Source of the DNA: a virus
Lineage: Duplodnaviria > Heunggongvirae > Uroviricota > Caudoviricetes
DNA: 11,040 nt
IMG/VR virus record: IMGVR_UViG_2695420579_000005
Strand: one strand, 5' to 3'
Numbering within the stretch: the first letter of the stretch is position 1; each line of letters begins with the position of its first letter. Made by a program: the position numbers. This document shows positions 1 to 3,000 of the stretch, piece by piece.

Positions 1-3000
1 TACACTAAATCAGTAAGTTGGCAGCATCACCAGCCTTCTTGAGGCTACCACCTGTTTTCAGGTGTCATTCAGACGTGATTTGCCCCAGATTGGGAAAGCA
101 CGCTTTTTTCTCAGCTATCGTCCTCTTATTTTGCCGTTACATTTCTTTTTGCATTCTAATGATTAATTTACAATAATAATATCGGTAATTATTGAGTAAT
201 AATAAATTAATTATTGCAAATGTAATTTAATTCCATCTTCGCGTTATATTCCAATCTTTAATCTCCGCATGGAACAAGTTGCATGCGTGACTATATTAAG
301 ACGACTTATAACCACCAAAACATTTGCTTTGCAAGCAAAAACAGTGACCATTGACTCTAAGAAAATTCCGATCTATTGTTAGGGTCATCAAAGTTACTTA
401 ACAGTATTCCGAAATGAAAATACAAAGCAAGCTAATTGTCTTATTAAACATTATTATTGCATTTATATTATTTGAGCTTTTAGCTCAAAAATTTGGTTTG
501 AGTACATTATTTTAAAGCAAGATAAACAATATCGGGCACTCTAGTTTTTATAATTAACAATTAAACGTCCATAAAATGTTATTTACTTTTCTTCGCTATT
601 GTCATATCTTAATATAGTGGCTTACGCCACTCTACTTTCATCACATTTTGTACGTTTATGTACTCGCCATGAAGCTCTTTCATGGCGATTTTTTATTCTT
701 AATCCAAGAACATACTCCCTACCTATAGCAAAATCACTTTTTTAACAAAAGAATAACGTATTTAGGTAATCATTACGAATTTACCCTATAGGTGCTACTG
801 GCCATTCAATATCCGGTGCAGTTGATGTATCAACACGGTTCAGCAACACCCGATACTTTTTCCAAGCTTCCAGCAACAAGGTTTCTTTCTCCGTTGCGAT
901 CTCCAGATCCACAGCATCCTGAAGCGGCGCTATATGCTCACTGGCTACCTGCATCAGGCTGTTTTTTGTTTCTTCCGCCTCCCGGATCCGGAACAGTTTT
1001 TCTGCTTCCGTATCCTTCACCCAGGCTGTGCCGTTCCACTTCTGAAACTCCCCTTCCGGGGATAACCAGGTGACATTTTCCGGTAATGAGCCGAGTTCAG
1101 AAATAAATAACGCGTCGCCGGAAGCCACGTCATAAACCGTTTTACCCCGATGATCTTCAACGAGATGCCACGATGACTCATCACTGTTGAAAACAGCCAC
1201 GAAACCAGCCGGAATATCTGGCGGTGCAATATCGGTACTGTTTGCAGGCAGACCTGTATGAGGCGGAATATATGCGTCACCTTCACCAATAAATTCATTA
1301 GTTCCGGCCAGCAGGTTATAAATTTTTATGGTCCGTGCTTGTTCACTCATTCTGAATGCCATTATGCGAGCCTCACAATATAGTTAAATGCGATGTTTTT
1401 GACGGTGTTTTCCGCGTTACCAGCAGCGTTAACGGTGATGGTGTGTCCATGTGAACCAATCGCAACAGAGTGCGTATGAGCACCAATACCGACAGTATGC
1501 GCGTGTGCACCCGCAGATGCTGCTGTGCCGGACAGTGAGTGTGTATGGTTTCCTTCTGAAGATGATTTACCTACCCATTGGGAGGTGCCACTGGTTAATG
1601 AGCCACTGATACCAACCTGATTAGTCCCGCTAACTTGAGTACTCCCTGCCGGAAACATTCCAGTAGGTTGACTCCCGCTATTCGTTCTGGGCCCAGTCTG
1701 ACTATGTTGGTGGGCCCCAGCTGAACTTGTAGAGCCGCTCAGACTGTGCGTATGCGCCCCGGTGTTATTCGTGGATTTAGTGCCGTAATCAAACGACGAT
1801 GTGGTTTTCGTCCCCAAATCCGTACTGGATGCGCTGGCGCTGTGGGTGTGCGATTTAATGCCATCCTGTTCCTGAGACAATACGGCACGACCACTGGCGG
1901 GCTTGCCCTTAATCGTCCAGCCACGCATATCAGGGATCACGCCTGACGGATAAGCGGCTGCAAGTTTCGGGTAAGCAGATTTGTCAAAAGTCTGCCCCTG
2001 CATCAGGGCATAACCAGACGGAACGGTATCTGATGGCCACGGGATTGGTGCACCGACTGGATAAAACTCTGCAGGAGGATGAGCCGAGGTGTAAAGCTGC
2101 GCCCACGGCGACCAGTTTGCGTCGGTCGTATCCCGTCGTGAACGAATAAATGCCGGAGCATGAGCACCGCTTGTACCACTCCAGCCGATGAGTAACTCAC
2201 CTTCGCCAACGGCTGTCATCCCTTTCAGGTGAATGATATTTCCATACGCTGTTGGATATCCGTTGTTATACACCTCGTATAACTCAAGACCTGCTGCCCC
2301 CTGCGTATTGTCTGTCAGCGCGGCTACCCGACCTTTTGAAGCCAGATTAACTGATGATACTGCTGTTCCACCTGACGGTAGCGCCCCGATCTCTGATGCC
2401 GTTGGCTTATTTCTGGAGTTATAGTCCCTTCGCCAGCCAGGTGAATAATCTGTTCCGTGATTAATATAGGTAAACTGGGCGTTGGTTGTTCCGCCACCGC
2501 TGGATGTGGTCGGAGTGGTAATGCGGATCGTCATCGCTGACTTTATCCCCATTACTTCAATGACAGCTCCGGCGAGATGAATATTACCGCAGCCAGTATC
2601 AGTAATGATTTTATTATTGCCATAAGACCAGGAACCCTTGCACATCCAGTATGGATGGTTAAATGCTCCCTGAGAATCCAGCCACTCGATAAACTGTGCA
2701 GTCGTCCAGTTTCCTGTTGTTGTGCTTACTGACCCACCGAAGGCACGGCAGGCACCAATATTTTTCGTAAAGGTGTCTTTGCCAGGGATATCCGCACCGT
2801 TCTGATCTTTCTGCAGACGTTTCTCAGCATTGTCATTGGCTGCTTTTACTGCCTTTGGCGTTGCCGCCAGCGTTTCAGACGTGCTGTTGGTCGCGCTGCT
2901 TAGCTGGATTATCCCTTTCTGTGCTGTCGTTGCATCCTGTGCGGTGTATTTCCCGTTAGCCAGGTCATACGCGGCCTTAACGGCTTTTGGTGTTGCCGCC

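Follow-up and report, generated by a model that had tools for sequence, protein, structure and literature searches.

A probable moron cassette after tfa in lambdoid prophages, with a predicted YncL-like membrane peptide and a conserved 3' block

The AT-rich DNA between the tail fibre assembly gene tfa and the end of an IS1 element in the viral record IMGVR_UViG_2695420579_000005 probably contains a self-contained moron cassette that lies after tfa, extends from 203 or 236 to approximately 715, and expresses a YncL-like inner-membrane peptide. Positions are those of the whole stretch of 11,040 nucleotides that we analyzed, hereafter the window. Promoter hexamers, an open reading frame (ORF) of 33 codons, and an intrinsic terminator move together as one unit, and a block at the 3' end is conserved as non-coding sequence. 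Several features are those of a moron at the sequence level: a promoter-like site and a terminator that are conserved with the ORF, a deviant GC content, and a patchy presence. Transcription of the cassette, translation of the ORF without a Shine-Dalgarno sequence, the location of the product in the membrane, its physiological effect, and any function of the RNA are predictions. What is new is an unannotated phage-borne gene that belongs to the YncL family, together with a conserved 3' RNA block, and not a new kind of system.

The original prediction, made from this sequence, had described an abrupt change in composition at the tfa stop codon and a segment with no ORF of 60 or more amino acids. 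Both descriptions were accurate: the GC content was 0.25-0.375 across 1-800 and 0.50-0.55 from approximately 800 on, in the tail genes (200-nucleotide windows), and no ORF of at least 60 amino acids was found on either strand in 32-780. The promoter-like site, the hydrophobic ORF without a Shine-Dalgarno sequence, and the plus-strand terminator that it had picked out are all present, the last within one or two bases of where it had been placed. It had made the proposal depend on conservation of the ORF, and we found that the ORF and the terminator are both conserved. Apart from the terminator, it had missed the most conserved part of the cassette, which is not the ORF but an approximately 80-nucleotide block in the 3' untranslated region (UTR).

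The 33-codon ORF and its relationship to YncL

The ORF (414-515, plus strand; MKIQSKLIVLLNIIIAFILFELLAQKFGLSTLF) is a real gene that is under purifying selection as a protein. We collected copies by means of a non-coding anchor block to avoid selecting for the ORF, and found the 33-codon frame intact in all 58 copies that could be evaluated (from genomes, phages, and IMG/VR contigs). There were four variants of the peptide, and the start, length, and stop were kept. With the terminator alone as the anchor, 22 of 23 copies in metagenomes were intact, the exception (L100) having ATA in place of ATG, so that the frame was intact in 80 of the 81 copies sampled overall.

The substitutions in the ORF were those expected of a protein-coding gene. 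The most divergent lineage (L005, L011, and L036; 79% identity over the unit) differed from the window at 18 nucleotides and only five amino acids (V9I, I15F, F17L, E21K, and S30Y), corresponding to a dS of 1.03, a dN of 0.094, and an omega (dN/dS) of 0.09 by NG86. When the same substitutions were placed at random, 37% of the trials made a stop codon and 0.02% kept the frame open with five or fewer amino acid changes (P = 0.0002). Four to five of the five to six changes in the ORF of the L012 lineage were synonymous, and the segregating changes were mostly at third codon positions (13 of 23, with two of 23 at second positions). All five alternative frames of the region contain stops. The nucleotide identity of the ORF (80%) was not above that of its flanks, indicating that the constraint is on the protein and not on the DNA.

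The alternative that the segment is non-functional AT-rich filler, in which the ORF, the hexamers, and the hairpin are there by chance and the terminator merely insulates the tail genes from outside transcription, is extremely improbable. It would account for the frequency of promoter-like sites, which is about that in shuffled sequence, for the fact that no annotation pipeline calls the ORF, and for the insertions and deletions of IS1 for which the region is a hot spot. Further, 13 ORFs of at least 20 amino acids overlap 1-800, and the size of the 33-codon ORF is thus not unusual in AT-rich DNA; the longest ORF in the segment has 52 amino acids (18-176) and starts inside the IS1 inverted repeat. 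Such filler does not account for the low dN/dS, the retention of the frame, the significant end-to-end homology to YncL by four methods (below), or the persistence of the cassette in viable phages and after tail-fibre genes of different types. From these comparisons, chance features in junk DNA are effectively ruled out. Because neither the ORF nor the promoter match is above chance when taken alone, the reality of the ORF rests on its substitution pattern and its homology.

The predicted product is a 33-residue peptide that begins with MKIQSK (charge of +2) and has a hydrophobic core (residues 7-25) with a mean Kyte-Doolittle hydropathy of 2.54, compared to 2.15 for YncL. It is essentially unannotated, with two anonymous metagenome records versus thousands for YncL. 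None of the listed E. coli records has an annotated feature under the ORF, and the phage records call other ORFs. A literature search found no prior description of the peptide or its sequence, or of a prophage moron for such a small membrane protein.

Two of the other ORFs called in this DNA, each entered as a hypothetical protein in a phage record, are probably spurious. An ORF of 55 codons (gp28 of ev099; 62-166 in the window, where it is split by IS1, and 3968-4135 in the related locus L001) has lost its ATG and frame in L006, and one of 37 codons that is annotated in PhiR70_1 (269-382 in the window) is frameshifted by insertions or deletions in loci of the L005 type.

The predicted peptide is a divergent, previously unannotated homologue of YncL, with similarity that goes beyond composition. 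In NCBIfam, it matched only NF000537 ('stress response membrane protein YncL'), with E values of 1.3e-5 and 3.7e-5 in two variants, over positions 1-28 of the 30 in the profile. BLASTP against YncL of K-12 (MNVSSRTVVLINFFAAVGLFTLISMRFGWFI) aligned 28 residues from Met1 without gaps (39% identity, 64% positives, E = 2e-7), and hhalign aligned 29 columns, beginning at residue 1, with a probability of 90% (E = 1.7e-6). The Smith-Waterman score of the two peptides was 60, which none of 20,000 shuffles reached, and scores against 13 other small hydrophobic peptides of E. coli, used as controls, were 13-35. Additionally, P0022, a frameshifted copy that is identical over residues 1-28, has the precomputed Pfam assignment PF28073, as do genuine YncL proteins. 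The positions shared with YncL are Ser5, a basic residue at 6, Asn12 (in the helix), Ala16, Leu19-Phe20, Leu22, and (K/R)-F-G at 26-28.

We looked for further relatives in several ways. An exhaustive phmmer search of 1.84 billion representatives returned only the peptide itself and its frameshift variant and nothing intermediate between these and YncL, and a homologue query in which YncL and the peptide were concatenated returned seven proteins, all of at least 43 amino acids. Scans of species-representative genomes with patterns for the conserved block and the peptide found nothing. No match was found by tblastn with the peptide or with K-12 YncL against phages and plasmids, even in phages known to have this very ORF; because the default low-complexity filter hides the peptide, this result is uninformative rather than negative. 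The failure of Pfam to match the peptide is also uninformative, because the copy used was without PF28073 and K-12 YncL itself was not matched. Besides YncL, the peptide had no match in NCBIfam, Pfam, PHROGs, or PADLOC.

YncL itself has been studied experimentally. It is a membrane protein of 31 amino acids that has been detected in cells and is induced by heat, in minimal medium, and in stationary phase (PMC12542507). It causes sub-lethal depolarization, a phage-shock response, condensation of the nucleoid, and reduced protein synthesis, and its over-production depolarizes the membrane and reduces viability (PMC12542507). YncL is cleaved by RseP in vivo (PMC10470546). In Salmonella, yncL is transcribed as STnc1110, a short 'coding sRNA' that depends on sigma-S and was first catalogued as a small RNA (sRNA) (PMC5437024).

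Transcription signals and the conserved 3' block

A sigma-70-type promoter-like site is upstream from the ORF on the plus strand (351-379), with TTGACT at 351-356, a 17-nucleotide spacer, and TATTGT at 374-379, matching at 9 of 12 positions in our scan. Support for a promoter comes from its conservation and not from the match alone. TTGACT-N16-18-TATYGT was present in almost all of the loci that have the unit (L026 has TTGATT), and the -35 hexamer and its surroundings were invariant in the lineage with 79% identity, in which the -10 is TATCGT. Transcription would start near 386 and end at approximately 694, making a transcript of approximately 310 nucleotides. The C at 373, immediately before the -10 (TCTATTGTT), resembles a sigma-S-type extended -10. 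K-12 yncL has ACTATACAC at the place equivalent to this C-preceded -10. The resemblance fits the sigma-S dependence of yncL in Salmonella (PMC5437024).

The putative transcript would end at an intrinsic terminator (664-696, plus strand) that has a stem of 10-11 bp (664-688, with five G-C pairs) and a U-tract at 689-694 (TTTTTT in the DNA) that is followed by AUU. The hairpin has a folding energy of -15.2 kcal/mol (z = -5.8 versus shuffles), and the scan found two terminator-like sites compared to 0.8 +/- 0.8 expected. The terminator was conserved in all copies; in two lineages the loop-closing G674.U pair is A-U. The second terminator-like hairpin (471-489, inside the ORF) was rejected because two substitutions abolish it in the divergent lineage.

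The most highly conserved part of the cassette is the block that ends in this terminator. Identity in the divergent lineage was 92-94% over 612-690, versus 80% in the ORF and 62-67% in the neighboring UTR, and the variable part of the 3' UTR (516-611, plus strand) is approximately 65% identical there, with insertions and deletions. The block has a predicted hairpin (616-631, plus strand) that has a 6-bp stem (AGUGGC/GCCACU) and a UUAC loop, followed by an A/U-rich linker (632-663, plus strand) that is conserved, predicted to be single-stranded, and a candidate seed or protein-binding site. A predicted 4-bp helix within the linker is broken by several natural variants. Among 59 genome and viral loci and approximately 25 metagenome loci, a sample that includes copies anchored on the terminator alone, 632-653 varied only by C644T and by an insertion of one nucleotide after 653 (in L063). 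The whole block folds with a z of -6.9 as a hairpin, an unpaired stretch, and the terminator.

Conservation of the block is not explained by overlapping ORFs. A minus-strand ORF of 24 codons was rejected as the cause because the changes in it are mostly non-synonymous and it is frameshifted in L063, and a plus-strand ORF of 48 codons is frameshifted by variation in the length of the U-tract. Three interior substitutions in the stems (C621T and A629G, which give U.G pairs, and G674A) leave the pairing of the plus strand intact, and two of them would give A.C mismatches on the minus strand. These changes are modest support for a role of the structure in a plus-strand RNA. The block could stabilize the mRNA, bind a chaperone, or provide the seed of a 3'-derived sRNA; alternatively, its conservation could reflect a short, recent recombination tract.

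It is possible, and compatible with a YncL-like peptide being made, that the RNA is the functional product, with the transcript or an 85-nucleotide 3' species acting as an sRNA of the Hfq or ProQ type and the peptide secondary; we consider this fairly unlikely. The degree of conservation of the block relative to the ORF, the near-invariance of 632-653 even in the terminator-only samples, the arrangement, in which a hairpin precedes a single-stranded, A/U-rich stretch that leads to a terminator with a U-tail, and the failure of overlapping ORFs to explain the conservation all point toward an RNA. There are precedents in Salmonella yncL, catalogued as an sRNA (PMC5437024), and in KilS, an sRNA from the 3' UTR of a gene of the Rac prophage (PMC8175672). 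However, Rfam (E <= 1) on 1-1400 matched nothing in 32-780, its only match being inside tfa (below), and on reading 560-615 we found no convincing pair of hexamers for an internal promoter. Two lineages have an interrupted U-tract (UUUCUU), and such short-patch conservation is also what recent recombination could produce. Further, pairing with two candidate targets was about that of shuffled sequence: -8.7 kcal/mol between the linker and the start region of its own ORF (-8.4 kcal/mol in shuffled sequence), and no better than shuffles with the start region of K-12 yncL. A dual function, in which the YncL-like peptide is combined with a regulatory RNA that is derived from the 3' UTR, based on 632-653, and reprograms host genes, or in which the two form a non-canonical, RNA-controlled toxin-antitoxin pair, seems to us unlikely.

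We also considered that the peptide might be a type I toxin, with or without its antitoxin, that damages the membrane, is restrained by an RNA (possibly through the 3' block), and stabilizes the prophage end or causes abortive infection. The peptide is small, hydrophobic, has a single predicted helix, and is encoded at a prophage end; translation of an ORF without a Shine-Dalgarno sequence could be tightly limited; and a highly conserved, structured RNA block is on the same predicted transcript. A promoter-like site on the minus strand (605 to 576) could yield an antisense RNA across the ORF, but it is the only one found, is at chance frequency, has a -35 that is not conserved (ATGACA is ATAGCA in the divergent lineage), and is not accompanied by a minus-strand terminator in 1-1400. 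A restraining RNA might also be encoded in trans. The linker does not pair with the start of the ORF appreciably better than shuffled sequence does, and PADLOC gave no match. YncL was the sole match in NCBIfam, which holds models of type I toxins, and the chromosomal homologue YncL has no known antitoxin. Loss of the ORF and everything to the left of the terminator by way of IS1 is tolerated. We therefore regard a type I toxin as decidedly improbable, while noting that a 'stress protein' and a 'toxin' are not sharply distinct, as over-produced YncL depolarizes the membrane and lowers viability (PMC12542507). Toxins and membrane modulators had both been raised for this ORF beforehand; a modulator fits what is published about YncL, and the family searches gave no specific support for a type I toxin.

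Distribution of the cassette and its setting in the prophage arm

The cassette is common but patchy. We searched 5,426 complete E. coli genomes with BLAST and found it in 831 (15%), nearly full length in 822 (distant-mode BLAST); the strain EAEC 042 is one of the carriers. Among 50,697 phage records, it was in four that represent three phages, and it is present in the viable phages mEp332, ev099, and PhiR70_1. The cassette, with a GC content of 25-34% compared to approximately 50-55% in the tail genes, recurs as a unit (203 or 236 to approximately 715) in a Qin-like remnant at ydfJ (approximately 96% identity) and in prophages adjoining sitABCD (79-94% identity). It is directly 3' of a tfa gene or a tfa remnant in 58 of 59 loci, behind several types of stf and tfa genes, with three unrelated left flanks, and at no fewer than three chromosomal sites.

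The Qin-like and sit-linked copies have 3' fragments of tfa, in the same orientation, on both sides of the cassette (L004, approximately 3900-4000; L005, 3892-3991; L011, 2892-2991). This arrangement suggests that the cassette may have spread by recombination between tfa genes.

The segment 32-780 is a mosaic made up of three or more modules. The original prediction had treated it as one unit; this holds for the promoter, ORF, and terminator and not for the segment as a whole. A total of 1343 genomes matched some part of it, including copies of the leftmost 85 bp (32-116) alone at other prophage ends. These 85 bp are outside the cassette; the prophages with solitary copies are lambdoid, and with IS1 removed the 85 bp form the right-hand end of a module of 215-535 bp that many prophage ends share. 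In relatives without IS1 (L001, L006, and L007), homology to the module runs left past the IS1 site and includes a 3' fragment of a tRNA-Ser gene. Next is a lineage-specific, extremely AT-rich spacer (117-202) that is found only in loci of the window type and is absent from the L004, L005, and L012 types. The upstream region of the cassette (203-350, plus strand) has its left boundary at 203 in the L004 and L005 types and at 236 in the L012 type, and 236-300 is moderately conserved. On the other side, the cassette ends at approximately 715-720, within the spacer (697-780) that separates the terminator from the stop codon of tfa: identity drops to 62% over 721-780, and the junction with tfa is shifted by 44 nucleotides in the L005 type.

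The tRNA-Ser fragment that lies in the module is approximately 62 nucleotides long and resembles the 3' part of the gene (L001, 3828-3890, inside the phage accessory arm). The module is common to the right ends of lambdoid prophages at other chromosomal sites. The fragment, which we take to match serU, the gene for tRNA-Ser(CGA), may be a fossil attachment site from an earlier integration or from imprecise excision. In an O26 strain (L006, 3284-5284), the shared 85-bp element adjoins three tandem DUF1076 genes that, from the domain name, are presumably NleG-type effectors. An ORF of 55 amino acids in the same locus is labeled 'capsid protein', which seems an unlikely name given its size and position.

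The left end of the window is the terminal inverted repeat of IS1 (1-31), and the element itself is to the left of the window. The same 31-mer is at the identical junction in many loci, and in two of them (L002 and L003) it abuts an annotated IS1A transposase gene. There are at least four independent IS1 junctions in the 750-bp AT-rich spacer (31/32, approximately 184 in L048, approximately 660 in L064, and approximately 711 in L013), each in a different strain, and the spacer is a hot spot for IS1. At two of these junctions, the cassette has been deleted in part or completely.

The window corresponds to the right arm of a lambdoid prophage. tfa (781-1362, minus strand, identified from its ORF and the annotation of homologous records) is convergent with the cassette. 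Beyond it, also on the minus strand, are further ORFs, including one of 1029 codons (1362-4451) with counterparts annotated as tail fibre genes and a large one (8174-11032) that corresponds to what is annotated in relatives as the tail-tip/J gene. Rfam family RF02111 ('IS009') gave a full-length match on the minus strand at 821-1019 (218 bits, E = 7e-55). This match is wholly inside tfa, and the family thus appears to model conserved tfa coding DNA and not an independent RNA.

The flagged segment is part of a non-essential accessory arm. In the counterpart prophage that is without IS1 (TUM9757, L001), AT-rich DNA extends approximately 750 bp further left, to a gene for an AraC-family regulator (minus strand), beyond which are IS remnants and then the chromosomal ybhB-bioA genes. 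The viable phages mEp332, PhiR70_1, and ev099 have the same layout, with the regulator gene and then remnants of IS-type transposases, and ev099 has an integrase gene beyond these. In its position, the arm can be compared with the b region of lambda. The regulator gene itself (L001, 2501-3253, minus strand, approximately 750 bp to the left of the IS1 site) has IS fragments on its flanks and is a further accessory gene of mEp332, ev099, and PhiR70_1; in the window, IS1 separates it from the cassette.

Proposed function and comparison with known systems

We propose that the lysogen expresses the cassette, plausibly when it is stressed or in stationary phase. A promoter of the sigma-70 or sigma-S type at 351-379 would drive the transcript of approximately 310 nucleotides toward tfa, and the terminator would stop it 85 nucleotides before tfa, thereby avoiding antisense read-through into the late operon. 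Translation without a Shine-Dalgarno sequence would give a single-pass inner-membrane peptide of 33 residues with its N-terminus inside, according to the positive-inside rule. By analogy to YncL, the peptide might lower the membrane potential sub-lethally and shift the lysogen to a low-activity, stress-tolerant state, and the phage could benefit from the stress tolerance of its host or from interference with superinfecting phages. The 3' UTR module would most likely stabilize the transcript or be released as a 3'-UTR-derived sRNA.

Several findings weigh against a moron cassette with a YncL-like product. The scores against the YncL hidden Markov model (25.0 and 23.5 bits) are below the curated cut-off of 35 bits, and K-12 yncL has a GGTGG Shine-Dalgarno sequence whereas the present gene has none. 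Because of the low scores, the phage locus, and the lack of both GGTGG and similarity in the UTRs, the peptide is not an equivalog or orthologue of YncL. No relatives outside E. coli phages were found in the searches that we made, and the gene is therefore without deep phylogenetic support. The promoter match is weak, at 9 of 12 positions, and five such sites were found versus 4.2 expected in shuffles. The evidence from divergence comes from essentially two independent lineages, the L005 and L012 types. Finally, null alleles occur rarely (L100 has ATA in place of ATG, and P0018 and P0022 are frameshifted), and IS1 has deleted the unit in some strains, indicating that the gene is dispensable.

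If the proposal is correct, phages have borrowed a class of host stress peptide as a gene for lysogenic conversion or exclusion. YncL is among the few small membrane proteins of E. coli that have been detected experimentally, and its role in sub-lethal depolarization and metabolic silencing is only now emerging. A divergent copy in approximately one in seven complete E. coli genomes has been invisible to annotation, and it shows how small hydrophobic genes escape gene callers and default BLAST filtering. The copy is also a natural variant for studies of structure and function, as Ser5, the basic residue at 6, Asn12, Leu19-Phe20, and (K/R)-F-G survive a divergence of 61%. The system should be tractable, since the host recorded for mEp332 is K-12 MG1655.

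In its layout, the cassette resembles the morons of lambdoid phages, including lom and bor of lambda, the morons of HK97, and cor, which is downstream of the tail genes in phi80, HK022, and N15. Lambdoid phages commonly carry exclusion and conversion genes at the distal end of the tail-fibre region, and the cassette is in the same neighborhood. Like these morons, it is an extra unit between conserved phage modules, with its own promoter-like site and terminator, a deviant composition, and a patchy presence. It differs in that its predicted product is far smaller than those of the morons known from this neighborhood and is related to a host stress peptide.

The small hydrophobic single-helix peptides of type I toxin systems (Hok, Ldr, Ibs, ShoB, TisB, ZorO, and DinQ) resemble the predicted product in general form, and the homologue YncL depolarizes the membrane when it is produced early (PMC12542507). 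In contrast to these systems, the peptide has no sequence match to any toxin family, and we found no conserved antisense or divergent antitoxin RNA in the cassette.

The cassette also resembles 3'-UTR-derived and 'coding' sRNAs, such as KilS from kilR of Rac and STnc1110 from yncL, in having a short transcript (here predicted), a 3' hairpin, a single-stranded stretch, and a terminator. It differs in that its block has no Rfam family and in that the two targets we tested pair with it at chance level.

The closest counterpart of the gene itself is yncL (b4598 of E. coli; STM14_1932/STnc1110 of Salmonella). The two products have 31-33 residues and one transmembrane helix and align without gaps from Met1, and each gene has a short stand-alone transcript with its own promoter followed by a stem-loop (here predicted; for Salmonella, see PMC5437024). 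Besides the ribosome-binding site, the differences are in context: K-12 yncL is between patD and ortT and the present gene is 3' of a phage tfa gene; their UTRs are unrelated, the present gene having its own conserved 3' block; and yncL is a core gene whereas the present gene is accessory, found in approximately 15% of complete E. coli genomes.

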